A stretch of 63,996 nt of DNA, counting the filler, from a bacterium (GTDB lineage: Bacteria > JAMOTN01): assembly GCA_027062325.1 (NCBI GenBank). It is 3 parts of 3 records of this genome, joined end to end, with 100 filler letters (N's around TTAATTAATTAA, not from the genome) between each part and the next. Parts side by side here need not be neighbours in the genome. Positions count along the whole stretch, not along the records: positions 22,427 to 44,672 come from JAMOTN010000068.1; 2 more parts are not named here. The stretch is one strand, 5' to 3'. Positions 22,327-63,733 of this stretch are shown piece after piece (position 1 is the stretch's first letter; each line of letters opens with the position of its first letter). The translations under genes were made by a program, and so were the position numbers. The notes below the pieces were generated by a model that was given only the letters and a program-made list of their open reading frames with translations, did not search any database and had not been told where the DNA came from.

Positions 22327-22426
22327 NNNNNNNNNNNNNNNNNNNNNNNNNNNNNNNNNNNNNNNNNNNNTTAATTAATTAANNNNNNNNNNNNNNNNNN
22401 NNNNNNNNNNNNNNNNNNNNNNNNNN
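22327..22426. other. artificial contig linker
   Basis: N44-TTAATTAATTAA-N44 (stop codons in all six frames). Confidence 0.98.
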
Positions 22427-22861: not shown

Positions 22862-22901
22862 TGTTCCTACAACATATCTGGTGTTTCTACAACATATCTG
22901 G
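22862..22901. repeat. 20-bp tandem duplication covering the stop codon of the third dynamin gene
   Basis: TGTTCCTACAACATATCTGG / TGTTTCTACAACATATCTGG (1 mismatch). Confidence 0.85.
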
Positions 22902-25046
22902 CAAGCTATTCTTTAAATTCATCAATGCATCACGTATTCGGGCCACTCCATCTTCTACTTCCTTTAGAATCTCCGCCAGCTGTTTACTGTTGAGTTTGTT
23001 ATTGCTTTTCGCTACTTTCCTAATCTTGTTTAAGGTCTCTGCAATTTCAACCGTGGAATCCATCCATTCCGCAAGCAAGTTTTCTAATTCGCTTATCAAA
23101 TTTTCATATACCCAAATCACAGAAAGTGAGGTTGTTTTAACGTATTTCCTAAATCTTTTCCAGAACTTCACAAATTCAATTACTGCTGGGAAGTTAGAGA
23201 ACTCCAAAAGATTGTGGTAGCTTACTGTTTCTATTTCGTGAACTGTTTTGAGAGCATCAATTGCATCTTGCAAAAATTTTAGCGTATGATTATTTAAAGA
23301 GCCTTTTTTGATTTTTTTTAGAAAACTTTCCACATCTTGTGCTCTGGTGAAAGAGGGGTATGCTTCTTCTATCTGTTTTACCTCACTAAAAAGTTTAGCA
23401 GATACGGGAATTACAATAATTTTTTCTTCTGGCAATCCCAGGTTGTGCAGTTTGTTTTTGATAAAATGAGCAATTCGTAATGGAATTTTTATGGTTGCCA
23501 TGTCGTGTTCCATTACGTCTATTTTGTTAATGAGACATAATATTGCTGGAGATTCTTCTCCAGTTTCTTTTATTTTCTTCACAGTGTCGGCAATTTCCTT
23601 CAAGAGTTTTAATTCTATATCCTGCAAGTGTTTTGAGTAGTCCATAACAAAAATTATTAGGTCTGAGGAAAAGATTAAGTCCTCAAGAATTTGATAAAGA
23701 AAATTATGTTCTGATGCTGCGAAATCGGGACCTACGGTATCCACAAGTTTAATGGATTCCATTAGTCTTTGGGAGGTAAGTGAGGGGTCTAAGTAAGGTA
23801 AACTTTGTGAGAGAGGAAAGAAAACGCCTATATATCCTAATTTTTTACCGTCATATTTTTTTTCTTCAAACATTTCAAATAAATGATTGTAAAGGTCCTT
23901 TGAACTGGGAAAGATTTGAATTCCGCCTTCAGTTTCGTCTGTGATAAGAACACTTTTAGAATTGAAGATGTTGACACCTTCATATATAACGATGTTTGGA
24001 GTAGGTGTCTCTGAACTTTCTGGAGCATATTTTTTGCCAATAAGTGCGTTTATAACAGAACTTTTACCTGCTTTTTTACTTCCCAAAAGAAGATAAACAT
24101 GGTTTGCCCGCATTTTTTCATTTAATGTGTTAGTCAATAGATCAATATCAGCTACTATTTTTTCACACGCGAAGGCATTTACTAATAGGTTAAATGAAAA
24201 TAAGTTGTAAAGTTCGATTAAGAAACTAAAATCTACTTTTTCAAGTGGCAACCCTACTAAATATAGGGTTTCGCTGAGTATTTGTCGCAACCCTTCTGCT
24301 ACTGCTTTTAAGTTGGAAAAGTTGAACAATAACGTTTCTCCCAGGAAGTGTTCCATGCTTATCAAAAAAGCTTTTTCTGAAATACCCAGATAAAGCATTG
24401 CTTCTGCAGTTTTAAAAATTTGATCTTCAGGAACAAACAAAAGAATCACGTTCTGCGTAGCTGTTGTCTCCAATGAGGCAATAAAATTAACAAAGTCTGA
24501 AAAACGTTTTATTGTTATAGTTTCAAAATAGCTGGAGGCAAGGTTAAGAAAGACTTCTTCTGTAAGTTCTACAACTTCTTCCTCTATACTTCTTTTCCCT
24601 CTTCTTTCTGGTTTCCCCCTTTCTTTTTTGTGTTTGTTGACTCCCGTATCTTCCCCGTCCTTTTTTAAAGTGAATTTCCTTTGAAAAAATTTTCTAATTC
24701 TCTTTTTTAACTCTGAAGGAATTTCCTTTTTCCTAAACCAACTTTTTATATAGAACTCCTCATATTTGTTGGGGGGTGCCCATGCAACAATAGCACCCCC
24801 TTTATATTCAACTTCTTCACATACCTTCACAGCTATTTTCAGAGAATCATTAATATTTCCTCCGACTTCTTCCAGCACCGTGTGTAATTTTTCTTCACCT
24901 GTCCAAATAACATGTTTTTTCCTATTTAGCGCTTCCATTAAATGAAATTTGTTTTTCGTTGTTATCACATCCATTGATCTCTTTCTCTCCTTATTGTTAA
25001 TCTCTTCTCTCTTTGTCGTTGTTTTATCCTTATTTATACTTGCCAC
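22887..25046 (-). CDS. dynamin-family GTPase (Dyn3; paralogue of 28509..31232 with a short C-terminal stalk)
   Basis: G1 GSKKAGKS, G2 APESSETPTPN, G3 DTVG, VMDYSKHLQ, G4 INKID and IPVSA; alternative start ATG 24974. Confidence 0.85.
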   Translation of the reverse strand: MASINKDKTTTKREEINNKERKRSMDVITTKNKFHLMEALNRKKHVIWTGEEKLHTVLEEVGGNINDSLKIAVKVCEEVEYKGGAIVAWAPPNKYEEFYIKSWFRKKEIPSELKKRIRKFFQRKFTLKKDGEDTGVNKHKKERGKPERRGKRSIEEEVVELTEEVFLNLASSYFETITIKRFSDFVNFIASLETTATQNVILLFVPEDQIFKTAEAMLYLGISEKAFLISMEHFLGETLLFNFSNLKAVAEGLRQILSETLYLVGLPLEKVDFSFLIELYNLFSFNLLVNAFACEKIVADIDLLTNTLNEKMRANHVYLLLGSKKAGKSSVINALIGKKYAPESSETPTPNIVIYEGVNIFNSKSVLITDETEGGIQIFPSSKDLYNHLFEMFEEKKYDGKKLGYIGVFFPLSQSLPYLDPSLTSQRLMESIKLVDTVGPDFAASEHNFLYQILEDLIFSSDLIIFVMDYSKHLQDIELKLLKEIADTVKKIKETGEESPAILCLINKIDVMEHDMATIKIPLRIAHFIKNKLHNLGLPEEKIIVIPVSAKLFSEVKQIEEAYPSFTRAQDVESFLKKIKKGSLNNHTLKFLQDAIDALKTVHEIETVSYHNLLEFSNFPAVIEFVKFWKRFRKYVKTTSLSVIWVYENLISELENLLAEWMDSTVEIAETLNKIRKVAKSNNKLNSKQLAEILKEVEDGVARIRDALMNLKNSLPDML

Positions 25047-25064
25047 AACAGCCAGTAAAAGGGG

Positions 25065-27707
25065 TTATATGTGGCTCAGCTCTGCCTTTAGTTCGCAAAT
25101 TTTGCCGAGTATTTCGTTGGCGATTCTAACCTCTAATTCCTTTTTAGCATTTTTTTCGATTTTAGAAGGGGCGATTAAAGCGATGTTGTTAACTATAAAT
25201 TCCCAGAAAATATTGGGATTGTCCTTTGTATGTGGAGATTTTATTTTGTCAACAAGAATTTCGTAATAGTAGGTCAACACGTCAACAATGGTTTCTTCAA
25301 GTCCAAGAGCATTTACAACGGTTTCCGTGAGTATCTTTTTTATGATTTCTGCATCCTTTTCTATCTCTTTTTCTACTTCTTCATAGCTTGCGTAATGTGT
25401 TTTTGTTACCTCAATGTTTTCACTTAATGCATCTGCCCTCTCTTCCTCCAATCTGTCCTCTGGATTCTTCCAATACAGGGAAAGGTGACGTTCTATAGAA
25501 TCAAGAATTTTACTCGAAAAACTTTTTTTAGAAAGGGATTTACTCTTACTGGGAACTGCGGTGTTTTTAGCGGAATTTGCTGTAGCTTGTTCTTGTTGGG
25601 AGGTTTGCAATTCTTCCATTATCTCATCTAATTTTTCTGTTACGAGCTCTAGAAGAGCAGATATTGTTTGCTTAGACAAGTTTACCATTTTATCTAAACG
25701 GCTTTTTTTAAACAGGAAGGAAACCAGTTGTAAAGCTAGTGTTTCCTTTCCAACGTATTTCTCAAGCCCGGGATATTTCTTAAAAATTTCCTCAATCATC
25801 TCTTTAAACCCTTTCCAATTAACCATCTCCTCCTGATAAATGAGTTCATTTTTTATGCCTTCAAAAGGTAGAGGAAGATAAGGATCAAAGTTTTCGTTAT
25901 ATGCAAACAAGCTGTATATATCTCTTTCCCATGTTTTAAAAACGTTCACACGGTCAGTTGACCCAACTCTATGCTTCATTATTTCTACAAATGGTCTTGT
26001 GTAACGCTGTGTTATAACTTTTATAATTTCATGTCCTTTGGCAAACGGAAACTCTCTATCCAGTAATTCCACAAGTTTCTCTAAAAGCTTATCCCATTCA
26101 TCTTTGTCAGCTTCCATTACTTCAAGCAGTTTTTCGGCAAACTTTCTGTTGATTTCCTGCAGATACGCCACAAGAACGTCTTCCAGAAAAGCCAGCTTGC
26201 TTTGCAATTTCCGGCGAAAAACTTCACGTAGTCTTTTGGCATATTCTTCCGTAACTTCAGCTTCGCGAACGTATTCTGCAGCAAGCTGGGTTTTTATTTG
26301 ATCTTTCTCTTTATCTGAAATGCTAAGGTCCATGTTTCTTATTCGCTCTATAAGTTGCTTACTTATGGCTTTCTCGTTTTTTATTTTTAGCACTTCAAAA
26401 TTTTTAAAACGCGCCAGTTTTCCTTCACCTTTTTCCGTTATATCCAGCATGAGTTTATCATAAGTTTCTTTGACAAGACCCACGTAGTTTTTTCTGACAG
26501 TGTTGGGATCTGCAACGGACTGTAAAATTTTTTCCAATGTGTCAATAATCTCGTGCAATTCTTCAAGTCGTCTGTTGATTTTCTTCTCAAGATTTGGAAT
26601 CCTTTCCTTTTCGTTGTATTCCTCAAGTTTTTTCTTCAACTCTTCAATCCCGCTGGTAATCCCCAATCCTTTCAGCCTTTCAGAAGCATTTATCTCAGAT
26701 GGGACAACTCCTTTTTCTTCAAGATAGGCAAGCGCAGATCCAAAAATGACCCTGTATTCTGGAACGTTGAGATTGTATTTTTTTAGCTCGTTCATAAAAA
26801 CTTCAAAATTTTCCTGTAAAGCTTTTGAACTACTTAGCATGTCAGCTTGGTTCAGGAAGAAAAAAAGCTTTTCTGTAAGGTAACTTCCCTCTTCTCTCAT
26901 CTTAGGACTGAGTATCATGTCAACTTCGGGTTTGTTTATGCTGGGTTTATGTGCAGGCCTTATGTAAACGATTGCGTCTACTTCTTTCATTTTCTGTTGA
27001 GTATATTTTGAGTGGCGTATTGCGGGCGAATCAAAGCCGGGCAGATCGTACATGATTATATTTTTGAACTTTTCCAAGGCTGGCGATTTAATAATTACGG
27101 TTTTTATTGCCAGAGATTTGTATTCGTCGGTAATAAAACTGCGAGCCTGTTCAGGAGACATGGTTTCTATGCCTCTATCAAGCAGTCTTTTGATTTCCCT
27201 TTTCCCATTTACCATTGATTTAAGATCATTTATAACCGAATTTACCTCTGAAGACGAAAATTTTTCTCCTACTTTTTCTATCTCTTCCATTCTCAAACTT
27301 TCCAGTGTTTGCTCGTACGCATTTGGGTAACCGATTTCAGCCAGCATTTGACGGAGTTTTTGAGTGAACTCTTCGCGCGTGAGAAAGTGGACCTCTGCAG
27401 TCGGGGTATCCGAATAAACAATTTGAGTGATGGCATAAGTCATTCTTCTGTCGGCGCGTGGAAGTATATCGTTTTCTATGAGAGCGTTTAAAAATGTGCT
27501 TTTACCCGAACTTTCAGTTCCAACAACCGCTACTTCAAATATGCCCTTCTCAAACTTTTCTTTGAACTTCTCAAAATCGCGTCGCAGCGAGTAAATTTTA
27601 TCGTAATCAATCTCTACCGGAAAATCCGAGCTATACTCTTCCAGCTTTTCAAGGAGTGAAAGAGCTTTATCAACCTTTGGTTTTAGCCTGTCAAAAGAAA
27701 ACTTCAT
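25065..27707 (-). CDS. dynamin-family GTPase (Dyn2)
   Basis: VAVVGTESSGKSTFLNALI, ILP..DRRMT (G2), YDLPGFDS (G3) and LNQAD (variant G4); long helical C-terminus; GGAGGT SD. Confidence 0.9.
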   Translation of the reverse strand: MKFSFDRLKPKVDKALSLLEKLEEYSSDFPVEIDYDKIYSLRRDFEKFKEKFEKGIFEVAVVGTESSGKSTFLNALIENDILPRADRRMTYAITQIVYSDTPTAEVHFLTREEFTQKLRQMLAEIGYPNAYEQTLESLRMEEIEKVGEKFSSSEVNSVINDLKSMVNGKREIKRLLDRGIETMSPEQARSFITDEYKSLAIKTVIIKSPALEKFKNIIMYDLPGFDSPAIRHSKYTQQKMKEVDAIVYIRPAHKPSINKPEVDMILSPKMREEGSYLTEKLFFFLNQADMLSSSKALQENFEVFMNELKKYNLNVPEYRVIFGSALAYLEEKGVVPSEINASERLKGLGITSGIEELKKKLEEYNEKERIPNLEKKINRRLEELHEIIDTLEKILQSVADPNTVRKNYVGLVKETYDKLMLDITEKGEGKLARFKNFEVLKIKNEKAISKQLIERIRNMDLSISDKEKDQIKTQLAAEYVREAEVTEEYAKRLREVFRRKLQSKLAFLEDVLVAYLQEINRKFAEKLLEVMEADKDEWDKLLEKLVELLDREFPFAKGHEIIKVITQRYTRPFVEIMKHRVGSTDRVNVFKTWERDIYSLFAYNENFDPYLPLPFEGIKNELIYQEEMVNWKGFKEMIEEIFKKYPGLEKYVGKETLALQLVSFLFKKSRLDKMVNLSKQTISALLELVTEKLDEIMEELQTSQQEQATANSAKNTAVPSKSKSLSKKSFSSKILDSIERHLSLYWKNPEDRLEEERADALSENIEVTKTHYASYEEVEKEIEKDAEIIKKILTETVVNALGLEETIVDVLTYYYEILVDKIKSPHTKDNPNIFWEFIVNNIALIAPSKIEKNAKKELEVRIANEILGKICELKAELSHI

Positions 27708-27882
27708 CGTGATCTACCTCCCTCTTTTCTGCTAAACCGACTCTAGCCACTTCGCCTCCCATTAGGTTTCCACAAGCGCCCTTAGTTTGAATTTTCTAAG
27801 ATTTTTTCCAGTTTTTCCAAAGTATCCTTGAGTTGTAATGTGATGTCTTTTAGTTCTTTAACAACCTCCTTTAACTGCTGAT

Positions 27883-28512
27883 TTACAGAGAATGCTTGAT
27901 TAATTTTAAGAAAATCATAATTACCAAGATTACGAATACAACCCCAAATATTAGCCACATCATTCTTGCTAAGTTCCTTGAGCGACTTTCCTCTTGAAGA
28001 GAACGAGTTGAAAATTTTTTTTTCAATCCACTTAGATTTTCTTTTCCGTACTTTTTGTCAAATTCTTCAAAGTTCTCCTTCAATTCCGCAAAATATTTTG
28101 GTTCCACCTCTTCAAATATTTCTGCCATTACTCCGAGAATCCGAATAAACAGATCCGTATCTTTTACAACTCTGTTGAAAGCCTCTTCAACCAATTTCTC
28201 CTGTCGCTGATGTTTAAACCATATAAAACTGCGCAGTTTGTAAATGTTTTGACTTAGAAGTTTGACTCCTTCCTGATCAAAGAGGTAGGAGGCAACCTCT
28301 ATGAGAATGGAGTCAAAGTTTACTGTTTGAATGGTTAAGGCATTCCCCTTGTAATTTTGACGAGCTATCTCTTTCTCTCTCTTTAGGAACAGTTCCTCAA
28401 CCTCAATTCCTTTCATTCCCTCACCTATCTCTATTCCCATGAGTTCTGCAAGTTCAGATAGCTTCTCTGAACCACTTTCAAATGCACGATCGTAAAAAAT
28501 CATATTCTTCAC
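27883..28512 (-). CDS. dynamin-operon accessory protein: 209 aa with C-terminal TM in frame 0, or 243 aa with a coiled-coil tail after a -1 shift at an A9 tract
   Basis: GTGA overlap with the Dyn1 stop; A9 at 28015-28023; the -1 frame stays open to 27782. Confidence 0.7.
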   Translation of the reverse strand: MKNMIFYDRAFESGSEKLSELAELMGIEIGEGMKGIEVEELFLKREKEIARQNYKGNALTIQTVNFDSILIEVASYLFDQEGVKLLSQNIYKLRSFIWFKHQRQEKLVEEAFNRVVKDTDLFIRILGVMAEIFEEVEPKYFAELKENFEEFDKKYGKENLSGLKKKFSTRSLQEESRSRNLARMMWLIFGVVFVILVIMIFLKLIKHSL

Positions 28513-31232
28513 CTCTTTACTTGATAAAGTTTAGAGATTTGATTCCATCTTGTAGTAAAACCTTCAATGTGCTTTTCAAACTCTTCAAGTAGTTTTTTGA
28601 CCTTTTGTCTTTCTTCTACAGACAACTCCAAAGCCTTCAAAACATCCTCTATTGGTTGTCTGACACTGTTTATGAAGGATACGACATTTTGCCAAAATTC
28701 CTCTGCCTTTTGACGAGTTATCTCTTCCACTACTTCTCTTAAACTTTGCTGAATTCCCTCACTTGAGATAATCTTCTCAATTTTACTGGCAATCTCTCCT
28801 TGAGCCTCCTGAAAGTGAGAGATGACTTCTTCAAGTACTCCATCCGCACGTTCATCTATGGAAACGGGGCTTGCAAATGGAAGAATTTTTCGCAGAAAAC
28901 CAGTGTGAACATGCTTGAAAACTTCTTTAAAATCAACTTCAATGCGTAATTTTTCCAAATCCAGGATATTGTTTTCAACTTTTTTTATAATCTCTGCTAA
29001 CCAATGCTGCCATTCAAACGACGGGGAAATTGAAGGTAATTCTACTTCAAGCTTTTCTGGCAGTAATTTGTCCACTTCAATGCCTTGCAACTCATCTTTA
29101 AGTGTTTTAAGGGCACCTTCTACCTCCGATTTTAAGTTTTCCATTTCCTTTTCAAGTCTTTTTTCGTATTCTTCAATTTTCTTCTCTAAATCCTCCCTCA
29201 AAATCCCACGGAATTCTTCCCTTAATAGAGCTTCTATTCCATCTATTAGAAAATCTCCCTTGAAAATAGTTAGATGAGAAAACTGGGATTTTAGCCTTTC
29301 TAATTCATCCTCAATACTCGTGAATATTTTATCTAACCAGCCCTTCTGAGAAATTTCTGTCAGTTCGTTTATAAGTCTTTCCGTTAACTTTCTAAAGTAG
29401 TCAGAAGCAGCAATTAAATTCTCACTTGCAATTGCTTGGATACTTTTTTGGGTGGTGATTACACTTATATGCACGACTTCTTCTTTGACTTCTTCCAAGC
29501 TTTCCACAATTCTCCTAAATCGTTCTTCCGATAGAAGTGAGCTTGTGTAGTTCAAAAACTTGGTGGATGCTTGACGGATTTTTTCGGTTTCGTCGGATAT
29601 TAGAAGAAGCCCACTTTTGCAGGTGTTTTGGACCAGTTTTTGCCTGGTGTCAACTGTGGCAAAGGTTGAATATGCCTTTTCTATATAGGCTTTGTCCTGG
29701 GCAACGTAGATCAGATGATTCTTGAAGGGTTCAAAGTTGGAAAGGGCAACTATATCCTCAAATCTAATTTCATCGGGGTCAACTTCAAAAATGTATTCAA
29801 AGGTGTTAATTTGATTCTGTATAAATCTAGCAACTGCTCTATCTATCTTATCCTTATACACTTTCGGGCGTAGAAATTCTTTCCACTCCGGATTATTCAC
29901 GGCTTCTGGAAACTTTTTCTTAAATTCCACGGTATAGAAATACGTCATAGCAGAAATTGGAATTGCGACCACTCCTTCCAACCCACTTCTTTCAAGAACA
30001 TGCCTTATAAAGAGAGCAACGCGAGATATTATCTTTTCGGTTGAAGTGTCGTCAAACATTAGATCAAGTTTGTTTATCGCGCATATTAGGGAATGCATTT
30101 TTTGTTTGAAAACTTCTTTCAGCCTTTCAAGAAGTTCCACTTCACTCTCTTGGGCGTGTTTTGAGTAATCCACCACGAAAACTGCAACATCGGCTTTATT
30201 CAAATACTCTTCCGCTATCCTTTTGTGATCCTCTGCTCCTGCAAGGTCTGGCCCCGGAGTATCGTAAATTTCAAAATTAATACCGGGCTTTCGGGGATAA
30301 TAAACACGCATTGTGGGAAGTCCTTCTCCTCTATCTTTTACCCTTTCAAACTCCATATGTATGTAATCCCATAGTTCTTCTTTTGTGGAAAAGTGCAAGG
30401 TTCTACCGCCGTATTCAAGCTTTAACCCTCCATCGTGAGGAATGTATTCAATAACATTTGGGGTTGGAAGTTCAGCACTTGTCGGAGCAAACTCTTCTCC
30501 AAGCAGTGCGTTGACAACCATACTTTTGCCGGATTTCTTGGTGGCAAAGACCGCAACTTTTATATTTCTCAACTCAAGTTTTCTAAGATTTTCAATAATC
30601 GCTTTAAAATTATCACGAGTTGTTGTTACCAGTTCACCTACAATTTTTTTAAGCTGGGAACTGGCACCTATAAGTTCTGGATTCGCCTCTAGGTTAAAAT
30701 TTTGAGCATACTTAAAAGATTCTTCGGCTGCTTCTATAACCTCTTCCTTTTGGCTTTCAAAAACTTTCAATGCTTTCTTTGTAGCAACTTCAGACGGGGT
30801 GCTGACGTTCCAACGAAGTCCTAAAAGAATTAACTGTTGAATCGTGTTTGCAACTTCCTTTTCATCCGAGGATTTGACAAGAAGTGTTACACTATTGGGG
30901 GTTAATTCGTAGGGGGATATCCCCAGTTTAAACACTTTATCTAGAGCCTCAGAAAGAGAATATACATCATAGCTTTCCGAGTTTACCTCCAGAACTGCTC
31001 CTTCGGAGAACTGAACCTCTTCTGCTATCTTCCAAAAATATTTTTCTGCGGAATCAACTTTCTTAAGTCTGCGAGATAAAACTTCAAGTGAGCGGTAAAG
31101 CGGAGGGGTTTTAGAATCGTAAATTATCACGTATTTTTCTCCGGATGTGAGTAAATTTTCAAGCTCTTTTTCTGATCTGGCAACTTTTACACCTCTGTAT
31201 TGCATTGAAGGAGATTGAATTGGATTGATCAT
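28509..31232 (-). CDS. dynamin-family GTPase (Dyn1; CrfC/YjdA-like G-domain motifs)
   Basis: VAVFATKKSGKSMVVNALLG, APTSAELPTPN, YDTPGPDLAG, VVDYSKHAQ, AINKLD and IPISA; about 380-aa coiled-coil C-terminus; AAGGAGGT SD. Confidence 0.9.
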   Translation of the reverse strand: MINPIQSPSMQYRGVKVARSEKELENLLTSGEKYVIIYDSKTPPLYRSLEVLSRRLKKVDSAEKYFWKIAEEVQFSEGAVLEVNSESYDVYSLSEALDKVFKLGISPYELTPNSVTLLVKSSDEKEVANTIQQLILLGLRWNVSTPSEVATKKALKVFESQKEEVIEAAEESFKYAQNFNLEANPELIGASSQLKKIVGELVTTTRDNFKAIIENLRKLELRNIKVAVFATKKSGKSMVVNALLGEEFAPTSAELPTPNVIEYIPHDGGLKLEYGGRTLHFSTKEELWDYIHMEFERVKDRGEGLPTMRVYYPRKPGINFEIYDTPGPDLAGAEDHKRIAEEYLNKADVAVFVVDYSKHAQESEVELLERLKEVFKQKMHSLICAINKLDLMFDDTSTEKIISRVALFIRHVLERSGLEGVVAIPISAMTYFYTVEFKKKFPEAVNNPEWKEFLRPKVYKDKIDRAVARFIQNQINTFEYIFEVDPDEIRFEDIVALSNFEPFKNHLIYVAQDKAYIEKAYSTFATVDTRQKLVQNTCKSGLLLISDETEKIRQASTKFLNYTSSLLSEERFRRIVESLEEVKEEVVHISVITTQKSIQAIASENLIAASDYFRKLTERLINELTEISQKGWLDKIFTSIEDELERLKSQFSHLTIFKGDFLIDGIEALLREEFRGILREDLEKKIEEYEKRLEKEMENLKSEVEGALKTLKDELQGIEVDKLLPEKLEVELPSISPSFEWQHWLAEIIKKVENNILDLEKLRIEVDFKEVFKHVHTGFLRKILPFASPVSIDERADGVLEEVISHFQEAQGEIASKIEKIISSEGIQQSLREVVEEITRQKAEEFWQNVVSFINSVRQPIEDVLKALELSVEERQKVKKLLEEFEKHIEGFTTRWNQISKLYQVKR

Positions 31233-31314
31233 TTATACCTACCTCCTTGTCCAAAAATTCAAACATACTTTTCACGTTTTTGTCATTATTTTGTGATAAA
31301 AGCAAACCGGTAAC

Positions 31315-31323
31315 ATTATATCA
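31315..31323 (-). promoter_or_regulatory. extended -10 promoter upstream of the dynamin genes
   Basis: Minus strand TGATATAAT (TGn-TATAAT), about 83 nt upstream of the Dyn1 ATG. Confidence 0.5.
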
Positions 31324-31380
31324 AATATTCGCCTTTGCTTTTTTCTCCCCCTTCTTTTCTTCTTGGTTGGAGGTTGAAAT

Positions 31381-32670
31381 TTATAAAATATCAAGATTGT
31401 CAAACTTTTTTTCAAATTTTTCTTCAAATACTTTTTCAAATTCTTCTGTAGGATGATCTTTGCGATAGATGAGTTTTTCTTCTTTAGTTGATGCAATTTC
31501 TTCAAGCTTTAAATTAGCTTGCAGGAGGAGTTTGTAGAACGACAGTAGGATTTCATCGGCGAATTCTCCATAGGAATCCCATTTTTTCATTGTTTGCTTC
31601 ACCCTAACAATTGCTTCTGCTGCTATACGTGCTGTGATCTCAGTGCGACTGGTTGGACTATAAAGCCGTAAGGGTTTTAAAATCTTTCTCTTTAAACTGT
31701 CAACGATGTAGTCAGCAATACTTCCTCCATAGCCCCCGCGATAGAGAAATTCAAAAATTAGCTCATCCCACATTTCAATCTCGCTTTCAACGACTCTGCC
31801 GTTGGCGATCACATCTCCAAAAATCTTTGAGGTTAAATTTGCGTGAGATTTTATCACAGTGGCAATTTCCTCGTCTGAAAAGATACGCCTGATGTGGTAA
31901 GTTATATCGTGCAACAACTTTGTTTTTAAAAGATCAGCTGCTGTGAATAGGACAGAAAGATACCTTTCGAAAAGATTGTTGATTTCTTTTATATTCCAAT
32001 GTACATCTGGAGAAAAATAGTCCAAGCTATCGGCAAGTAGTTTCGTTCCATAAAAGGTACCAGTTTTCCTTCTTCTACGAAGTAAATCCAGCAAGGATTT
32101 TCTTCCGTCATTCAACTCTGAGATAAGAGATAAACCTCCTTTAAGAAGTTCTGTCACCGTGGAGATCACTTTAGCACTCTTCACTTTTTTCCTAAGTTCC
32201 TCAGCCATCCTGTAACAGATCGGTAAATCCTCCACAGGTATACCCTGAGAAATATCCAGAATGGATTCTGCAGTTTCAGCTATGAGAGTTTTATCAGCAG
32301 AAGAGATTTCCCACTTTTTCAAAACGCGCGGTGAGAACTTTTTTATCACCTTGTTATACAATTCAATTTCTATTTCAGGGATGATAAGTTGCTTTTGCTC
32401 GGCAACTATTCTGGATATTTCCTTTACCTTTTCCTTAAATTCTTCTATGGACATGGGCGTGTGATAATCCTTAATCTTTTGTTGAACGTAAAGTAACAGC
32501 TGGCCAGAAAGCTTTGAAAGTGCAGAGCTGACAAGTTTAATATAACTTGGATGTTTTTTCACAACTTTTTGTATTTCGCTTGCAATTTCAAGGATAAGCT
32601 GATTGTCAAATTTTTTCTTTTCAAATTCCCTTTTCGATTCCCTTTTCCCAAATTTACCCCTCTTTACCAT
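31381..32670 (-). CDS. hypothetical alpha-helical protein (about 430 aa), dynamin island
   Basis: Long ORF with SD; K/E/L/I-rich; no recognisable motif; alternative GTG start 32679. Confidence 0.7.
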   Translation of the reverse strand: MVKRGKFGKRESKREFEKKKFDNQLILEIASEIQKVVKKHPSYIKLVSSALSKLSGQLLLYVQQKIKDYHTPMSIEEFKEKVKEISRIVAEQKQLIIPEIEIELYNKVIKKFSPRVLKKWEISSADKTLIAETAESILDISQGIPVEDLPICYRMAEELRKKVKSAKVISTVTELLKGGLSLISELNDGRKSLLDLLRRRRKTGTFYGTKLLADSLDYFSPDVHWNIKEINNLFERYLSVLFTAADLLKTKLLHDITYHIRRIFSDEEIATVIKSHANLTSKIFGDVIANGRVVESEIEMWDELIFEFLYRGGYGGSIADYIVDSLKRKILKPLRLYSPTSRTEITARIAAEAIVRVKQTMKKWDSYGEFADEILLSFYKLLLQANLKLEEIASTKEEKLIYRKDHPTEEFEKVFEEKFEKKFDNLDIL

Positions 32671-32978
32671 CCAAACCACCCCTTTCTTTTTGGGGAAGGT
32701 CCTACGAGCAGCCTTCAGGAAATTGTTGTGGTAGAACCTACCCCTTTGCTACCCCTGCCCTGCGTATAGAAGATACAGGGCAGAAAAGCCACAGAGCAGA
32801 AAAGCTGAAGCAGAGTGTGTTAAGCTGTGGTGGCGTTACTATGGGTTGGTTTTGCAATTGTGTTCCAGCTTTATAGTTACATCTAAGCTTTGCAATTGCG
32901 CCAAAGTTTGGATTTTAAGCAGAAGTTCCAAGCCACTTTCTCTGGTTTTTGGCTGTGGCTCTCAGCATATCAAGGAAG

Positions 32979-34004
32979 CTACACCAAATCCTTCGTGATA
33001 TCCACGAATATTTGTGACGCGCTGTCAAAAAGAGATGTAATCTTCTCGGCAATTTCTCTTGCAAAGGATTCGTTCATTTTGCTACTCAATCCCCATTTAA
33101 CTGCAGTTCCTATAAGGGGGATGAAACGTGTAAGCTGTTTTGAAGTGGATCTGGCAAACAGTCTTGTTGCCATTCGTTGAAGGGTTGCTCTCAAACCCTT
33201 TCGTGTAAATAGATAGCGGACTTCTGCTATGAATGCTGAGGTAAGTTTGGTAACAACAGGACTTTTTACAAGTTTGTCTGTAAGTTGTGGGAGAAATTTT
33301 GAAATTGTGTAGTGTTTGGCAATGCCGTGTGCTAGTGCTTTTGCCACACTTTGACTCACCGTTTTTCTCGCCATTGAATTGAATTTCCTTTGCAAAGACT
33401 TTTTGACTTGCTTAGCCAGATTCTCAAAAGCAATAACGGTAAACGCGGTGGCAAGGATAGATTCTATAACTAACGTGCTGTATCTAGAGGAAAACTTGTA
33501 GGTGCTGTTTAGTGTAGCCGCTACCTCGCCCCCCATTGATGCTAATTTGATAAATCCCGAAACAGGACCCAGGGCATTTGAAGCAAGGTCTAAAAGACTT
33601 GATAGGATGTTGTGATTTTGGAGTTCGGCGTAAAGATTTTTGAAAACAAGATTAAATATCATACTTTTCACTCTGTTGATTTTTACAAAGTTTGGTCTGT
33701 TTAAAACTGCTTCAACTACGCATTCTGCAATCTTCTTTTTCAACCTTCTTTCTTCTGGAGTAAGTTTTTCAAGCTTGACAGGCTTTATTTCAAGCATTTG
33801 AAAAACTGCCTCCACAGCCGGTGCCACAACTTCAAATATTTTTTCTTTCAAATTCCGATAGTCCCCCATAAGTGTTTCTATTTCTTTCTCTATTTCTTTC
33901 TCAACTTTTCTTTTCTCAATGATGGCTTTTAGAGCTGAACCAACAGCCTCATAAATGAATTGCTCATTAGAAAGATGGGAAATTACGAAGAGATTTTTCC
34001 TCAT
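32979..34004 (-). CDS. EcsC/DUF697-like helical protein, dynamin island
   Basis: C-terminal LTRFIPLIGTAVKWGLSSKMNESFAREIAEKITSLF resembles the K.IP.IG...G...N tail of EcsC/DUF697 proteins; ATG 34004 follows GGGGGGAGG (track start 34055). Confidence 0.55.
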   Translation of the reverse strand: MRKNLFVISHLSNEQFIYEAVGSALKAIIEKRKVEKEIEKEIETLMGDYRNLKEKIFEVVAPAVEAVFQMLEIKPVKLEKLTPEERRLKKKIAECVVEAVLNRPNFVKINRVKSMIFNLVFKNLYAELQNHNILSSLLDLASNALGPVSGFIKLASMGGEVAATLNSTYKFSSRYSTLVIESILATAFTVIAFENLAKQVKKSLQRKFNSMARKTVSQSVAKALAHGIAKHYTISKFLPQLTDKLVKSPVVTKLTSAFIAEVRYLFTRKGLRATLQRMATRLFARSTSKQLTRFIPLIGTAVKWGLSSKMNESFAREIAEKITSLFDSASQIFVDITKDLV

Positions 34005-34154
34005 CTTCCTCCCCCCTTTTTTGCTTTTTTCTCCTCGCTTCTTACCTGCTTTCATTTATAAAGAGCAAGGTGGAAACAATTTTGTGACATGAAATTTTAA
34101 AATTTTGAAGGCAACCATTCTTGACAGTGCCAAACGAGGCATTGCTAATTCATG

Positions 34155-34523
34155 CTATTCTTCACTTGTTCCTTCCTGAAAATGTAGAAGGTATTTCTTG
34201 GTTTTATTGAAAAGGAGACGATATTGATTTTCGATGCGAATGCGCGGATCATCTTCTATTAGAGGATTAGAGGGAACCCCGCTTCGAAAATTATGTTTTT
34301 CGCTACTTTTTGCTTTATTAGTTCTAAAAGTTCCTCATTGTTGAGCTTTTCAATTTTTTCAATTCCTGCAACCACGCAACACATTTTCAATACGTCTTTT
34401 GAAATACTGTCAATTTTGTTAGAATGCCTTTTTAACAGTTCAGATTTTGCTTGAATGGTCCAGTTGGGATGAAATACAAGCTCTCTTGCTTTGTTAGTAA
34501 CTATGAGGTAGTTCCCGCGGTAT
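34155..34523 (-). pseudogene. 5'-truncated, frameshifted gene remnant of unknown family
   Basis: Frame A YRGNYLIVTNKARELVFHPNW...EELLELIKQKVAK, then frame B HNFRSGVPSNPLIEDDPRIRIENQYRLLFNKTKKYLLHFQEGTSEE*; no start or SD for the 5' part. Confidence 0.45.
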
Positions 34524-34689
34524 CACACCGTTATCTTGACAAGAAATGCCAGGGTAGAAAAGCTGTCAACACTCGTTCTTACAAGTAGAAAGGGGTATGC
34601 AGTAGAACTTGCAAAAAAATGACCAAACGTAAGAACTGCCTGTTTCCTTTTTCAGGGCTGTGAAACGCTACTTACAAGAGTGTTATCAG

Positions 34690-34782
34690 ATGGAGGTGTG
34701 CAGCTGTAACACTATAAAAGACATAGCAGAAAAAATTGGAACATCCCCAGCAAAACTTTGGGAAGAGATAAAAACTGGGTGA
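34690..34782 (+). pseudogene. remnant of a DUF4405-protein paralogue C-terminus
   Basis: TIKDIAEKIGTSPAKLWEEIK aligns with RLIDISEKTGASPAQIWEELV at the end of 35359..36006. Confidence 0.55.
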
Positions 34783-34833
34783 AGTTTTAGATAGTTAGTG
34801 TTGGTTTTGCAATTATCAACTAAAACACAAACA

Positions 34834-38238: not shown

Positions 38239-38982
38239 ATGTTTCATCATTTACATGAGAGCTTACATCACTTGATTCATACATTAGTTCACAACTTATC
38301 TTCTGCAGGATGGATGAGCGTTATAATCGCCTTTATGATTGGTTTTTTACACGAGTTTGATCCTATTCACAACAGGTGGATGCTGTTAGCAGCAGCGGTA
38401 GCTGTTGGGAGAAAGCAGCGTCAGTACTGGCTGTTTGCTGTCACTGTTGGAATTTTACATTTTTTTACTAACTTAATCATAGTTTTATTTGTAAAGGGAC
38501 TAGTGTCACATGGAGGGGCAGGGGGAATCGAAAAAGTTGACATAAAAATTTTATCAGGCATATTTTTAATTATGTTGTCATTATATATAATATTTCACAA
38601 ACATGAGCATCATTATGATAGTGGTGGAGAGAAGTCAGGGAAACATAAAGCTTCTCACGAATCAGATAAAAGAGATAAAAATGGCCCCCTTACTACCAAA
38701 GAGACATTTCTTTCAGCTCTTGCAGTTGGAATTACACCTTGTCCGCTGACAGTTCTTATCCTATCCACAGCCTCAACTTTAATGAATTGGCTTCAGACGG
38801 TTTTAGTTGTTTTCTTCTTCCACTTAGGCTTAACTTCTGCAGTCTTAATGTTTACCTATATCATGGCCAGAGTTGGACGTCCGTTTTTTGAAAAACATAC
38901 AGCAAAAGCACGACTCATTTCAGCGATATTGATACTTATTTGGGGAGTTGTGTTGATTCTGCGCTCAAAGTTACTTGGATGA
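38239..38982 (+). CDS. RcnA/NiCoT-like nickel/cobalt transporter
   Basis: GFLHEFDPIH (cf. GALHALEPGH), His-rich N-terminus and loop, GITPCP (cf. GLIPCP); about 6 TM. Confidence 0.75.
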   Translation: MFHHLHESLHHLIHTLVHNLSSAGWMSVIIAFMIGFLHEFDPIHNRWMLLAAAVAVGRKQRQYWLFAVTVGILHFFTNLIIVLFVKGLVSHGGAGGIEKVDIKILSGIFLIMLSLYIIFHKHEHHYDSGGEKSGKHKASHESDKRDKNGPLTTKETFLSALAVGITPCPLTVLILSTASTLMNWLQTVLVVFFFHLGLTSAVLMFTYIMARVGRPFFEKHTAKARLISAILILIWGVVLILRSKLLG

Positions 38983-39507
38983 AATTTCATTTGCTCCCTT
39001 TATAGGTTCCAATACTATTGCAACTGTCTCTGCTTCTACCACTTCTCCTTCTTTAATGTTGACTTTGGTAACTTTCCCAACAAATGGGGCTTTCACTTCG
39101 TTTTGAAGTTTCATAGCCTCCAGTATAAATAGTAGATCTCCTTCTTTTACGATATCCCCTTCAACCACTGCAACTTTTATAATATTACCGGTTATAGGAA
39201 CTTTTATTTCTCCAGATGAACTGGCGTCTTTTGATTTACGTCTTCTAATTGAATCATCCGACACACTCACAAAGTAGTTTTCACCTTCTATATTTAAACT
39301 AAAGCCATCTTCTCTCTTATAAACGTATATTTCAAAACTTTTTCCATCTATTATTGCCGAGAAAGCCTTAAACTCAAGTTTTTTGAGATCTATCACAACA
39401 CTTTCAGAAGTTTCAAAATCAGTAACTTCTATTAGATCTTCGTGATTTTCTACTCTATTTACATCGAATTTGACCTCTTTCTCTCCACAAGAAACTGTTA
39501 CTTTCAT
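38971..39507 (-). CDS. biotin carboxyl carrier protein of an acyl-CoA carboxylase
   Basis: VPITGNIIKVAVVEGDIV...LEAMKLQNEVKAP biotinyl domain. Confidence 0.9.
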   Translation of the reverse strand: MKVTVSCGEKEVKFDVNRVENHEDLIEVTDFETSESVVIDLKKLEFKAFSAIIDGKSFEIYVYKREDGFSLNIEGENYFVSVSDDSIRRRKSKDASSSGEIKVPITGNIIKVAVVEGDIVKEGDLLFILEAMKLQNEVKAPFVGKVTKVNIKEGEVVEAETVAIVLEPIKGANEISSK

Positions 39508-39519
39508 CTACACCACTCC

Positions 39520-41070
39520 TTAGGGGAGGTTTACTGAACTCATTTTGTAAGGGATATTTAGCAATCTCCAGTTTGAATAGGAGGCTGATTTTGAGTTGTC
39601 GCTAATTGTAACTTTATCTGTGGAAGAAGAACTATGAATGGCGGAGAAATCTGTTTCTGTTTTGGCTTTGAAGAACAATGCTGCTGCTATTTTCATTGCA
39701 AGACATTGATATCTTTGAGGACGTTTAAAGTTTTTCTTGCCAAGCCAGTACACGCTATAATTACCTAGTTTAAATGTCTCTTCTGATAGTATCTTTTGTA
39801 AAACCCAAATGTTGGTTTTGACTCCCTCTACCCTAAACTCATCGAGTGCTCGCATGGCTCTGGCTATAGCTTCTTCGCGAGTCGAACCCCATATTATCAA
39901 TTTGCTAATCATGGAATCATACTCCAATTTCACCCTGTCACCGTAATAAACTCCGCAGTCATTTCTAACTCCAGGGCCTTCAGGAAGTCGCAACGCCTCA
40001 ATCTTTCCGGCACTTGGCATCCAATTGTTCTCATAATCTTCTGCGACAATTCTCAGCTCTATTGCATGTCCTATAGGAATTGAAGGTACCTTGATAGATT
40101 TGAGATTTTCTCCTTGAGCAGCTAAAATTTGAAGTTTTATTAAGTCAAGTCCTGTTATAGCTTCAGTAACTGGATGCTCCACTTGGATACGGGTATTTAC
40201 TTCCATGAAATAAAACTCATTTCCATCCACTAAAAATTCCACTGTTGCCGCACCATGGTATTTCGCTTTTTTTATGAGTTTCACCGAGGCTTCTTTTAAT
40301 TTACTTCTAAGTTTTGGAGTCAGAGTGGGAGCTGGTGCCTCTTCTATAATCTTCTGATACCGTCGTTGAATTGAACAGTCTCTCTCAAAGAGAAATAAAA
40401 CATTGCCGTGTTTATCCGACAGTAGCTGAACTTCTATGTGTTTAGGATTTTGCAAGAATTTTTCTATGTAAACTGCAGTTTTGCCAAATGCTTTTTCGCT
40501 TTCTGATACAGATATTTCAAAGTTTTTTATAAGTTCATCCTCGCTCCAACAGATACGTATTCCTCGTCCTCCACCTGCTGCAGCATTTTTTATTATCACC
40601 GGATAACCTATCTGGTTTGCTACTTTTAAGGCTTCTTGAGTGTCATTTATCAGATCGCTTGAAGGAACCATGGGAATTTTGAGCTTTTTAGCTATTTTTT
40701 TGGCTTCAATTTTGTCTCCCAAAAGTTTCATAGCGGTGTGGTCTGGACCTACGAATATTAGATTCATCTTTTCTATTTCCTTCGCAAACTCGTGGTTTTC
40801 TGATAAAAATCCGTACCCCGGATGGATTGCATCTGCTTGAGATTTTTTAGCTATGGAAAGTATCTCTTCCACATTAAGGTAACTCGATACTGGAAAGGCA
40901 TAATCGGCCAAACGCACGTGTATTGAATCCCTGTCGTCTGGAGTGTAGATTGCCACACTCTCTATACCCATATCTTTACAGGTTCTTATTATTCTCACTG
41001 CTATCTCACCGCGGTTTGCTATGAGAAGTTTTTTTATAGTTTTCTTCTTAACATCTTTTTTAAACCACAT
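39520..41070 (-). CDS. accC: biotin carboxylase subunit (AccC/PccA-like)
   Basis: LLIANRGEIAVRIIR, HPGYGFLSEN, GGGRG, RDCSIQRRYQK, EVNTRIQVEHPVTE and YDSMISKL. Confidence 0.9.
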   Translation of the reverse strand: MWFKKDVKKKTIKKLLIANRGEIAVRIIRTCKDMGIESVAIYTPDDRDSIHVRLADYAFPVSSYLNVEEILSIAKKSQADAIHPGYGFLSENHEFAKEIEKMNLIFVGPDHTAMKLLGDKIEAKKIAKKLKIPMVPSSDLINDTQEALKVANQIGYPVIIKNAAAGGGRGIRICWSEDELIKNFEISVSESEKAFGKTAVYIEKFLQNPKHIEVQLLSDKHGNVLFLFERDCSIQRRYQKIIEEAPAPTLTPKLRSKLKEASVKLIKKAKYHGAATVEFLVDGNEFYFMEVNTRIQVEHPVTEAITGLDLIKLQILAAQGENLKSIKVPSIPIGHAIELRIVAEDYENNWMPSAGKIEALRLPEGPGVRNDCGVYYGDRVKLEYDSMISKLIIWGSTREEAIARAMRALDEFRVEGVKTNIWVLQKILSEETFKLGNYSVYWLGKKNFKRPQRYQCLAMKIAAALFFKAKTETDFSAIHSSSSTDKVTISDNSKSASYSNWRLLNIPYKMSSVNLP

Positions 41071-41108
41071 GAGTTTCACCTCACTATTCATAAGGTGACG
41101 GAATTAAT

Positions 41109-41151
41109 AAGTAAAAGGGAGGGGGCAGCGGTGAATCAATGCCACCCCCTC
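41109..41151 (-). terminator. Rho-independent terminator-like hairpin between the carboxyltransferase and biotin carboxylase genes
   Basis: Minus strand GAGGGGGTGGC-loop-GCTGCCCCCTC followed by CCTTTTACTT (11-bp stem with 2 G-U). Confidence 0.65.
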
Positions 41152-41189
41152 AAGGTGCAGGTGGGTGCAGGTGTGGTCAAAGGGGTAAG

Positions 41190-42746: not shown

Positions 42747-42793
42747 ATCGCCCACCCCCAATTGAGTTTTCTGAATCGTTAAAGCTTCAAAGC

Positions 42794-44672: not shown

Positions 44673-44772
44673 NNNNNNNNNNNNNNNNNNNNNNNNNNNN
44701 NNNNNNNNNNNNNNNNTTAATTAATTAANNNNNNNNNNNNNNNNNNNNNNNNNNNNNNNNNNNNNNNNNNNN
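44673..44772. other. artificial contig linker
   Basis: N44-TTAATTAATTAA-N44. Confidence 0.98.
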
Positions 44773-44904
44773 AGGTTGTTTGAAAGAGGATATAACGACG
44801 AATATGAGAACTAAAAAGACGGTGAGAGTTATTAGTATGACGATTATCTTTTGAGGTGTAGGAAGTTGTTTAATCTTTCCGAAGAATTCTGAAAAAAATC
44901 CCAT
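44773..44904 (-). CDS. 5' fragment of a membrane protein cut by the contig end; FliF-like N-terminus possible
   Basis: MGFFSEFFGKIKQLPTPQKIIVILITLTVFLVLIFVVISSFKQP after a G-rich SD; the amphipathic helix-QKI-TM-P pattern resembles FliF. Confidence 0.4.
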
Positions 44905-44953
44905 TCCCCCTTATCCCCCCTGAAGGTGTTAACTAATTGATTAGACTTAAATA

Positions 44954-44969
44954 ATTGTCATATGACAAT
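44954..44969. promoter_or_regulatory. perfect 16-bp palindrome, candidate transcription-factor operator
   Basis: ATTGTCATATGACAAT in a divergent intergenic region. Confidence 0.55.
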
Positions 44970-45119
44970 CCTTCAAAAAGTTACAAGATGATTTTAACAT
45001 ATACTTTGGGCTCATACCACTTGCCATATAGTTTGTTTGAGAGATTTTATTTTTTTGATACAATCCAAATGTATTTTGTTTGATTAAAAAATGATCAATG
45101 TTAGAGTGGAGGGAGAATT

Positions 45120-46655: not shown

Positions 46656-46700
46656 TAAAATCTAAATGTGAATTAAAGTGAAAAATCGGAGGGATGTGAG

Positions 46701-47609: not shown

Positions 47610-47616
47610 AGGAAAG

Positions 47617-54878: not shown

Positions 54879-54883
54879 AAAAG

Positions 54884-57616: not shown

Positions 57617-57628
57617 TTTTATCCCTCG

Positions 57629-58180: not shown

Positions 58181-58221
58181 ATATATTACCTCCCTTTAGC
58201 GAACTAGTCAGCTTAATTTAG

Positions 58222-58237
58222 TGTTATAATTATAACA
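58222..58237. promoter_or_regulatory. palindromic bidirectional extended -10 element or operator
   Basis: TGTTATAATTATAACA reads TGnTATAAT on both strands, between divergent genes. Confidence 0.6.
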
Positions 58238-58297
58238 TCAAAATCTAACAATATAGAACAATTGAGGCAAGCAGCTTAGTAGTGGTTTTAGTTAGGA

Positions 58298-58783: not shown

Positions 58784-58795
58784 TGTGGGAGTGAT

Positions 58796-61126: not shown

Positions 61127-61159
61127 TTAAATTAAAGAATGTCTTGAGGGACTTTAGTT

Positions 61160-61558: not shown

Positions 61559-61614
61559 GGTTTAATAGGAGGGAAATAAGAGTCAACCAGTGAAGAACGG
61601 AAAACGGTAAACCA

Positions 61615-62352: not shown

Positions 62353-62363
62353 ATACTGCTTAC

Positions 62364-63714: not shown

Positions 63715-63733
63715 CTAAGTCCCCCCTATGGAT

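Follow-up and report, generated by a model that had tools for sequence, protein, structure and literature searches.

What is known of bacterial dynamins comes from a few model proteins, and it is still debated whether they act in membrane repair, vesicle release, division or phage defence. Bacillus subtilis DynA consists of two fused dynamin-like protein (DLP) units and serves membrane repair and phage tolerance. Most bacterial DLPs are encoded by side-by-side gene pairs, whose products are thought to form hetero-oligomers in membrane tethering or repair (PMC6104087; PMC4159319); a repair role was proposed for paired DLPs by Liu et al. 2018 (PMC6104087), only one of the two DynA units binds the membrane (PMC4159319), and some bacterial DLPs are linked to division (10.1101/2025.06.23.661029; PMC6104087). 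In enterotoxigenic Escherichia coli (ETEC), the first Leo gene is split into LeoC, a G-domain piece with a membrane anchor, and LeoB, the stalk (Michie et al. 2014, PMC4159319). A two-gene dynamin operon that needs both of its P-loops protects against jumbo phages, occurs in about 1% of genomes and lies beside defence systems in 60% of cases (Millman et al. 2022, 10.1101/2022.05.11.491447). Here we describe a locus with three dynamin genes (Dyn1, Dyn2 and Dyn3) in a window of 63,996 nucleotides, the whole stretch of DNA analysed, from a hydrothermal-vent bacterium (JAMOTN01; GCA_027062325.1), the metagenome-assembled genome of which comprises 1.65 Mb in 81 contigs and is 84% complete. In the direction of transcription, the genes encode a 358-aa protein, a 432-aa protein, Dyn1, a 209-aa protein, Dyn2 and Dyn3. 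Dyn1 and Dyn3 belong to a family termed D1 and Dyn2 to a family termed D2, and together D2 and D1 make up a family of bacterial dynamin-like protein pairs that is horizontally scattered and so far unstudied.

All three large proteins exceeded the Pfam Dynamin_N cut-off of 27 bits (Dyn1, 62 bits, 9.5e-17; Dyn2, 75.8 bits, 5.3e-21; Dyn3, 43.3 bits, 5.2e-11), and each contains the P-loop, the switch-I Thr, DxxG and N(K/Q)xD. In Dyn2, these motifs read GTESSGKST (G1), DLPG (G3) and NQAD (G4); the G4 Lys is variable in other D2 members, too. The three genes gave the only full Dynamin_N matches in the available part of the genome, and a Kyte–Doolittle scan revealed no hydrophobic segment in any of their products. 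The AlphaFold2 model of Dyn1, built from 58 sequences, had a mean pLDDT of 79.9. Its top Foldseek match was Nostoc BDLP (2j69, E 6e-14), and VIA-align gave Z values of 20.1 for SynDLP MGD, about 19.5 for mitofusin-1/2, 17.8 for IniA and 17.1 for Campylobacter jejuni DLP1 (Cj-DLP1). As modelled, Dyn1 is a BDLP/mitofusin-type dynamin with its G domain on a helical neck and trunk. No solved structure close to Dyn1 or Dyn3 was retrieved by sequence alone, and the best solved sequence matches of Dyn2 and of the D2 profile were Cj-DLP1, SynDLP and BDLP, with the D2 profile aligning to Cj-DLP1 (5owv_A) at E 3.2e-12 over about 80 residues of the G domain.

Dyn1 and Dyn3 share 29% identity over 303 aligned columns (residues 320-619, the G domain and the helices that follow it) and are paralogues. 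Dyn2 represents a separate lineage, and profile–profile alignment of D1 with D2 was confined to the G domain (probability 96%).

A collection of 5.8 billion proteins contained 43 other matches to Dyn1 at E ≤ 1e-3, the full-length ones being 28-34% identical. An alignment of Dyn1 relatives was scanned over one genome per species, which yielded 62 loci; open reading frames (ORFs) were called in all of these and scored with the D1 and D2 profiles, and 50 of the 62 had enough upstream sequence to be evaluated. The carriers include Aquificaceae, Sulfurihydrogenibium, Desulfurobacterium, Thermotogota/Fervidobacterium, Sulfurimonas, Nitrospirota, many Clostridia, Bacteroidales and a Succinimonas, and the D1/D2 family spans at least six phyla. 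A D2 gene was located directly upstream of the D1 gene on the same strand at 36 of the 50 evaluable loci, and the 14 unpaired ones comprised 13 Nitrospirota loci and one Lachnospiraceae locus. In the vent bacterium, this D2-then-D1 adjacency corresponds to Dyn2 followed by Dyn3, with Dyn1 as an additional, upstream D1 gene. An Aquificaceae locus (L010) carries a D1 gene and a membrane-anchored small gene in the absence of D2, and the order D2, D1 and transmembrane (TM) gene is found at L015 and L073. The vent locus is composed of two modules that occur apart elsewhere, namely Dyn1 with its anchor gene and Dyn2 followed by Dyn3.

The distribution of the family is patchy. Within the order of an Aquificaceae carrier (G041), a D1 gene was detected at E ≤ 1e-30 in five of 101 sampled genomes, and a search of the 40 nearest genomes (same domain only) gave one weak match. 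At thermophile-clade loci, the neighbouring genes are housekeeping genes, such as those for fumarase, argininosuccinate synthase, SMC, PlsX, GlmS, ClpX, TsaD and PNPase. The D1/D2 family was not found in IMG/VR contigs or phage records, and plasmids gave only G-domain-level matches to other dynamins.

The richest GTPase cluster observed in the family is that of a Candidatus Riflebacteria locus (L051), where a single D2 gene is accompanied by three genes of the D1 type and by genes for a 760-aa protein matching a Double-GTPase (DO-GTPase1) and for a 436-aa protein of unassigned function. At five Nitrospirota loci (L019, L023, L026, L033 and L061), an FRG-domain gene (PADLOC candidate PDC-S15) overlaps the end of a solo D1 gene and is followed at L019, L023 and L033 by a DksA/TraR zinc-finger gene, giving a three-gene unit distinct from the D2/D1 pair.

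Dyn3 is a truncated, fast-evolving D1 protein that matches the 870-position D1 profile over positions 1-568, the match beginning at Dyn3 residue 25. It retains the N-terminal domain, neck and G domain and lacks most of the trunk (profile positions 569-870) together with its tip; its N-terminal domain carries a basic insertion and no longer contains the QQ motif described below for Dyn1. Translation of the 460 bases past the Dyn3 stop codon revealed no trunk remnant; a 20-nt tandem direct repeat spans this stop codon (22862-22901). Comparable short D1 copies were identified at four other loci (L018, L036, L045 and L064, Table 1), each adjoining a longer D1 copy and placed as its sister with SH-aLRT values of 95-100. 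The tree comprised 80 rows, among them eight hand-added database proteins, with ORFs <480 aa excluded and five D2 proteins as outgroup. Its topology indicates that trunk-less D1 copies evolved independently in four or more further genomes. Because the short copies are sisters of the long copies of their own genomes, the three-dynamin layout is a rare, yet repeatedly evolved variant. The layout closest to that of the vent locus is found at L018 (long D1, small membrane protein, short D1), and Dyn3 itself was placed inside the thermophile clade. A complete 1.55-Mb genome (G088, locus L074) carries as its only D1-type gene a trunk-less one (558 aa, profile 14-562), with no full-length partner within 19 kb.

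A clear transmembrane segment was detected in just one of the six proteins, the 209-aa protein, and its C-terminal position defines a tail anchor. An exhaustive phmmer search of 1.84 billion representatives returned only the protein itself. At seven of nine thermophile-clade loci (L010, L012, L013, L014, L015, L018 and L073), a gene for a single-TM protein of 190-350 aa directly follows the full-length D1 gene; only L011, with a basic amphipathic tail, and L075 depart from this. The Clostridia and Bacteroidales loci contain instead one or two soluble proteins of ~105-125 aa without a Pfam family. The strongest link between D1 and such proteins is a natural fusion: in one protein (P0030, 1447 aa, present in two sources), a full-length D1 protein is extended by 538 further residues, the first ~145 of which are 43% identical to the small membrane protein of L018 (E 1.2e-31), and a TM helix is located at its C-terminus. 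In P0030 and P0050 (1447-1448 aa), ~390 further residues lie beyond the fused small-membrane-protein part. By analogy with these arrangements, we propose that the 209-aa protein is a membrane partner of Dyn1.

The N-terminal alpha/beta domain of Dyn1 was modelled alone with a pLDDT of 91.5. It is conserved throughout the D1 family, and Q132 of its near-invariant QQ motif is invariant in 35 sequences. No Pfam family, HPr included, was found in this domain in 24 members, and Foldseek gave no matches at E ≤ 0.001. The best VIA Z value was 4.6, and HPr reached 4.4-4.5, both under the trustworthy level. One JGI record calls a homologue 'HPr-like'; an HPr fold was not adopted in view of the low Z values and the lack of a Pfam HPr match in the 24 members. 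The predicted tip of the Dyn1 trunk contains a conserved amphipathic aromatic/basic motif (T777-V790) within a low-pLDDT stretch of the model. The corresponding columns of relatives show GGFWRWL- or RGLLGFLLLVLS-type motifs, whereas Dyn3 lacks this region altogether. The motif is a candidate membrane paddle that might bind the membrane directly. The D1 family profile also matched ApoA-IV (E 1.8e-9), and the trunk matches apolipoproteins compositionally; we read this as amphipathic-helix composition instead of homology.

Taken as a whole, the locus is read here as a lineage-specific elaboration of D2/D1 pairs for GTP-driven, anchor-assisted membrane tethering or repair, and we give this reading an even chance of being right. 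The 209-aa protein and the amphipathic motif at the trunk tip of Dyn1 would bring Dyn1 to the cytoplasmic membrane or keep it there. Dyn2 and the D1-type proteins would form a heterotypic complex, as in known dynamin pairs, and GTP-dependent dimerisation of the G domains could then tether, fuse or reseal the membrane at sites of damage, phage lesions included. Dyn3, which lacks the trunk, would act as a G-domain partner or regulator and not as the membrane-binding unit. We infer every binding step and the cellular role from knowledge of the family and from gene architecture. The metabolic or housekeeping genes in the flank of the cluster and at thermophile-clade loci, and the flat GC content across the cluster, speak for a general membrane role.

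Several results weigh against a tethering or repair function of this kind. No homology could be demonstrated between the 209-aa protein and the small membrane proteins of other loci: blastp gave E values >0.3, a hidden Markov model (HMM) of the soluble parts scored -2.3 bits, a value at least equalled by 886 of 1000 shuffles, and an HMM of the N-terminal 70 residues scored 2.6 bits, at least equalled by 315 of 1995 scored shuffles. As shuffled sequences match equally well, the analogy of the 209-aa protein consists in position and architecture. The long end branch of Dyn3 (2.07) makes its exact placement in the tree uncertain. Gaps of 148-299 nt set four of the genes apart, so that co-transcription is no more than possible. 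Finally, the rarity of the genes (five of 101 genomes) and the defence-type neighbours often found in other phyla fit a dedicated defence better than housekeeping repair.

Table 1. Features of the three-dynamin locus, numbered along the window, and short D1 copies at other loci
Feature	Position	Strand	Details
Joiner N44-TTAATTAATTAA-N44	22327-22426 and 44673-44772		artificial; genes across a joiner are not genomic neighbours
Dyn3 gene	22887-25046	minus	719 aa, probably 695 aa from Met25 (ATG at 24974)
Dyn2 gene	25065-27707	minus	880 aa; D2 family; G domain at N-terminus
209-aa gene	27883-28512	minus	tail-anchored protein; database copy from residue 4, 206 aa
Transmembrane helix of 209-aa protein (residues 187-205)	27898-27954	minus	Kyte-Doolittle 3.18
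Dyn1 gene	28509-31232	minus	907 aa; D1 family; N-terminal alpha/beta domain, neck helices, G domain, long helical trunk
Dyn1 trunk-tip amphipathic aromatic/basic motif (T777-V790)	28863-28904	minus	TGFLRKILPFASPV
Dyn1 G domain (about residues 225-445)	29898-30560	minus	G1 ATKKSGKS, T257, G3 DTPG, G4 NKLD; 58-sequence alignment
Dyn1 N-terminal alpha/beta domain (residues 10-160)	30753-31205	minus	near-invariant QQ motif Q132-Q133
432-aa gene	31381-32679	minus	helical orphan; database copy 429 aa
16-nt motif CAGRGYAGAAAAGCYR, two tandem copies	32776-32807	plus	gap between 358-aa and 432-aa genes
358-aa gene	32979-34055	minus	helical orphan; database copy 341 aa
16-nt motif CAGRGYAGAAAAGCYR, third copy	34550-34565	plus	~500 bases upstream of 358-aa gene
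Short D1 copy L018 (Sulfurihydrogenibium)			581 aa; D1 profile 15-547
Short D1 copy L036 (Succinimonas)			558 aa; D1 profile 1-516
Short D1 copy L064			585 aa; D1 profile 1-540
Short D1 copy L045 (Bacillota)			522 aa; D1 profile 1-501

An earlier note, made from the DNA alone, had described six co-oriented minus-strand genes, G1-G4 dynamin motifs in the three large proteins, which it divided into two subtypes, and a small gene coupled to Dyn1 through GTGA. ORF calling confirmed the six genes, the profile matches and the paralogy of Dyn1 and Dyn3 bore out the motifs and the two subtypes (with NQAD as G4 of Dyn2), and the GTG start of the 209-aa gene indeed overlaps the Dyn1 stop codon by 4 nt. 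In the order of transcription, the gaps between the genes amount to 299, 148, -4, 175 and 18 nt; the last one widens to 90 nt if Dyn3 begins at Met25, which is the likelier start because family homology begins at residue 25. A consensus scan of the minus strand revealed no terminator-like sites in the gaps. Because shuffled sequence yielded more sites than the real one when promoters and terminators were scanned together, the scan speaks neither for nor against a single transcript.

The window consists of three contigs (1-22326, 22427-44672 and 44773-63996). The dynamin cluster forms the start of the middle contig, with the true contig end 460 bases away. Since the contigs are separate, the TPR gene to the left of the cluster is not its neighbour, and the real context is the right-hand flank alone, with genes for OsmC, DUF4405, a TonB-dependent receptor, a DsbD-like protein, biotin carboxylase plus carboxyltransferase, and a CoA ligase. 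The Shine–Dalgarno (SD) sequence and start codon that had been noted at the contig edge as a sign of continuation are visible, the start being an ATG, with only 5 bases of the frame present. The locus is fully covered at 100% identity by contigs of one sequencing run, possibly the source run. Short pieces with 97-100% identity, reaching from the Dyn3 gene to the spacer past the 358-aa gene, were found in two runs from other studies, which indicates the same arrangement in closely related strains. A metagenome scan with Dyn3 returned only the 22,246-base contig of the locus itself, and no RNA runs containing the locus were listed. Protein tables also point to a longer contig (39.8 kb) in another assembly of this organism.

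The two genes upstream of Dyn1 are lineage-specific orphans that may or may not take part in the system. In a word-index search of the 5.8 billion proteins, the 432-aa and 358-aa proteins matched only themselves, and neither contains a Pfam family above cut-off. The ESM Atlas model of the 432-aa protein (pTM 0.18) had no usable neighbour, and that of the 358-aa protein (pTM 0.70) had no neighbour with TM >0.3. Neither protein had a usable feature match in the ESM Atlas. PHROGs gave weak matches only, all to families of unknown function, among them phrog_28578 for the 432-aa protein (E 8e-6). For the 358-aa protein, the best Pfam matches were DUF445 (E 0.0056), COG2_C and FANCA_helical, all under cut-off; its earlier description as EcsC/DUF697-like (families which we take to be PF12787 and PF05128) was dropped, with no such match at E ≤ 10, a range in which the HMMER filters drop most matches above E ~0.1. 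No homologues of the two proteins were found in the 62 related loci, the 432-aa protein having matches only in two loci from its own genome. Lacking relatives, the orphans are tied to the dynamins by position alone. A 12-nt periodic repeat was observed inside the 3' end of the 432-aa gene (31400-31447).

All three copies of the 16-nt motif CAGRGYAGAAAAGCYR that the 1.65-Mb genome contains lie at the locus, and its reversed control was absent (0 copies). It was not found in front of the dynamin genes. Its placement hints at a shared regulation of the two orphan genes, for which it may serve as an operator. Beyond the 358-aa gene, a spacer of 778 bases (34056-34833) contains no ORF >53 aa. The 'gene debris' proposed for 34155-34782 corresponds to this ORF-poor stretch, which may or may not be debris, and the 'repeat-rich spacers' reduce to a few short repeats, including the 16-nt motif. 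No Rfam families were found on the contig.

A competing explanation that comes close to an even chance denies the unity of the six genes: they would belong to as many as four neighbouring transcription units, one for each orphan gene, one for Dyn1 plus the anchor gene and one for Dyn2 plus Dyn3, and the orphans would be unrelated to the dynamins. It accords with the gaps of 299, 148 and 175 nt that part these units, with the separate occurrence of both dynamin modules elsewhere and with the confinement of the 16-nt motif to the region in front of the orphan genes; moreover, the orphans, having no relatives and no homologue in the 62 loci, show no demonstrable co-occurrence with dynamins. This has to be set against the common strand of all six genes with no predicted terminator between them, and against the pieces from two studies, which cover the dynamin genes as well as the 358-aa region and speak for a stable arrangement in close strains. 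In addition, all three dynamins of the genome lie together, an argument for cooperation of the four downstream genes at the least. The reading of all six genes as one system is not supported, since only position ties the orphans to the dynamins.

A second alternative, the main rival to a repair role and possible although on balance unlikely, is that the D2/D1 dynamins, together with Dyn3 and the anchor, form a dedicated anti-phage system, remotely related to Eleos, which would detect infection and target membranes or phage structures. The patchy occurrence (five of 101 genomes in the G041 order, at least six phyla) would suit such a role, and the two-gene dynamin operon that protects against jumbo phages provides a precedent (10.1101/2022.05.11.491447). 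Weak Leo similarity is found across the family, with LeoBC matching 11 of 16 D2 proteins and LeoA or LeoBC matching 10 of 21 D1 proteins, but the scores are low: no family member exceeds 54 bits, Dyn1 reaches 24.9 bits, and Dyn2 and Dyn3 have no match. Defence-type genes were located within three ORFs at eight of 25 loci, namely PDC-S15/FRG at L019 and L033, PDC-S02 at L039, WYL regulators directly upstream at L042 and L071, the Bunzi-like genes BnzA/BnzB at L071, a weak BnzA at L031, a GajB-like helicase at L070 and a type I methylase at L049. The 25 loci were hand-picked for long flanks, and the eight are a raw count that is suggestive only. In five of the 13 Nitrospirota loci the FRG-domain gene overlaps the end of D1, and a serine recombinase or Xre-type regulators adjoin some Clostridia loci. 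Other PADLOC neighbours are generic (ABC transporters at L044, a cysteine desulfurase at L070, a sigma-54 activator at L054), and at three further loci beyond the eight the PADLOC matches proved generic by Pfam. The one flank available in the window and the thermophile-clade loci contain metabolic and housekeeping genes and no defence genes, and the absence of the family from the IMG/VR contigs, phage records and plasmids searched likewise speaks against a defence system. An acquired-defence island, as suggested earlier, finds no support in the window, where the flank is metabolic and the GC content is flat across the cluster.

In a more far-reaching reading, D2/D1 would be a distinct, horizontally mobile dynamin class with a sensor-like D1 N-terminal domain, a dedicated tail-anchored receptor that is fused to D1 in some genomes, and repeatedly evolved trunk-less paralogues as regulators, which together carry out a membrane defence triggered by infection or lesions; the vent locus would be its most complete version, with the orphans as lineage-specific triggers or effectors. 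We regard this composite picture as improbable in its entirety.

That the dynamins act in cell division or in building the envelope, the kind of role proposed for Streptomyces DynA/DynB or E. coli CrfC, and not in stress repair or defence, is very improbable: although division-linked bacterial DLPs are described in the literature (10.1101/2025.06.23.661029; PMC6104087) and the thermophile locus L010 adjoins SMC genes, presence in five of 101 related genomes is hard to square with a core division role, the CrfC profile scored at most 23.8 bits against a cut-off of 1146, and the flank in the window contains no division genes.

Apart from the dynamin locus, the following features were observed in the window. 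The GC skew is very strong (0.3-0.5) at plus-strand genes and about -0.1 to -0.25 at minus-strand genes throughout the window, a pattern of coding-strand purine loading that is known from some thermophiles. On the minus strand at 38971-44671, genes for a biotin-lipoyl protein, a biotin carboxylase, a carboxyltransferase and a CoA-ligase/ATP-grasp protein, assigned by Pfam domains only, form a cluster that extends up to the contig end and presumably resembles the 2-oxoglutarate carboxylase and citryl-CoA synthetase genes of autotrophs using the reverse tricarboxylic acid (TCA) cycle. The third contig contains five minus-strand genes at 47617-57616, which encode a 910-aa HEAT-repeat protein, two Big_5 Ig-like proteins of 1199 and 538 aa, an NfeD membrane protein and a WecG-type glycosyltransferase.

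The observations of the earlier note were largely right and its interpretation half right. Its statement that no described system matches the locus agrees with the literature searched, in which we found no account of the D2/D1 family, of three-dynamin operons of this kind or of dynamins in these thermophile groups; the arrangement as such is not unique, with the pair at 36 of 50 loci and a third, short D1 gene at L018, L036, L045 and L064. The locus points to a large unstudied family of dynamin pairs in thermophiles, gut Clostridia, Bacteroidales and Nitrospirota. If the anchor truly recruits the dynamin, it would represent a simple bacterial counterpart of the receptor-mediated recruitment of eukaryotic dynamin-related proteins, and if the family defends against phages, the class of Eleos-type defence would be broadened. 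The thermophile proteins would also be good material for structural work.

At the family level, the distinction from Eleos, CrfC and DynA made in the earlier note held, with low PADLOC scores and with NCBIfam scores far under the cut-offs. Like the vent locus, Eleos has a consecutive pair of dynamin genes and a patchy spread over several phyla, and its LeoC/LeoB split is conceptually similar to a trunk-less G-domain protein with a separate anchor. PADLOC LeoBC matched Dyn1 with E 2.5e-6, no match was obtained for Dyn2 or Dyn3 at E ≤ 0.01, and the Leo profiles scored against 37 family members indicate a relationship at the superfamily level only. The N-terminal domain, the separate tail-anchored protein and the D1 duplication are features of the vent locus that the accessible text on Eleos does not describe. 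Eleos often lies beside defence systems; the single flank visible at the vent locus has no defence genes, and eight of the 25 selected family loci have such neighbours. DynA (NCBIfam NF052648) is matched by Dyn2 in its second unit only (positions 570-868, E 1.5e-21, 76 bits versus a cut-off of 1600). Its proposed function agrees with that suggested here. Its units are fused, whereas the vent locus has three separate genes, and the D1 type has no match to the first DynA unit. The low CrfC/YjdA score given above was obtained with NCBIfam NF007368.

The mitofusins, SynDLP and BDLP belong to the same class as Dyn1, with the G domain on a bundle of N- and C-terminal helices; Dyn1 is 11-17% identical to them, lacks a mitofusin-like transmembrane segment and has the extra N-terminal domain. 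C. jejuni DLP1/DLP2 (5OWV/5OXF) are likewise encoded by two different side-by-side genes, have the BDLP/mitofusin fold, and share the proposed role in membrane tethering or repair, with a sequence likeness limited to ~80 G-domain residues, too short to demonstrate orthology. Compared with this pair, the vent locus adds the 150-residue N-terminal domain of D1, a trunk-less third paralogue and a gene for a tail-anchored partner. Its core is a new variant of the known theme of paired bacterial dynamins.

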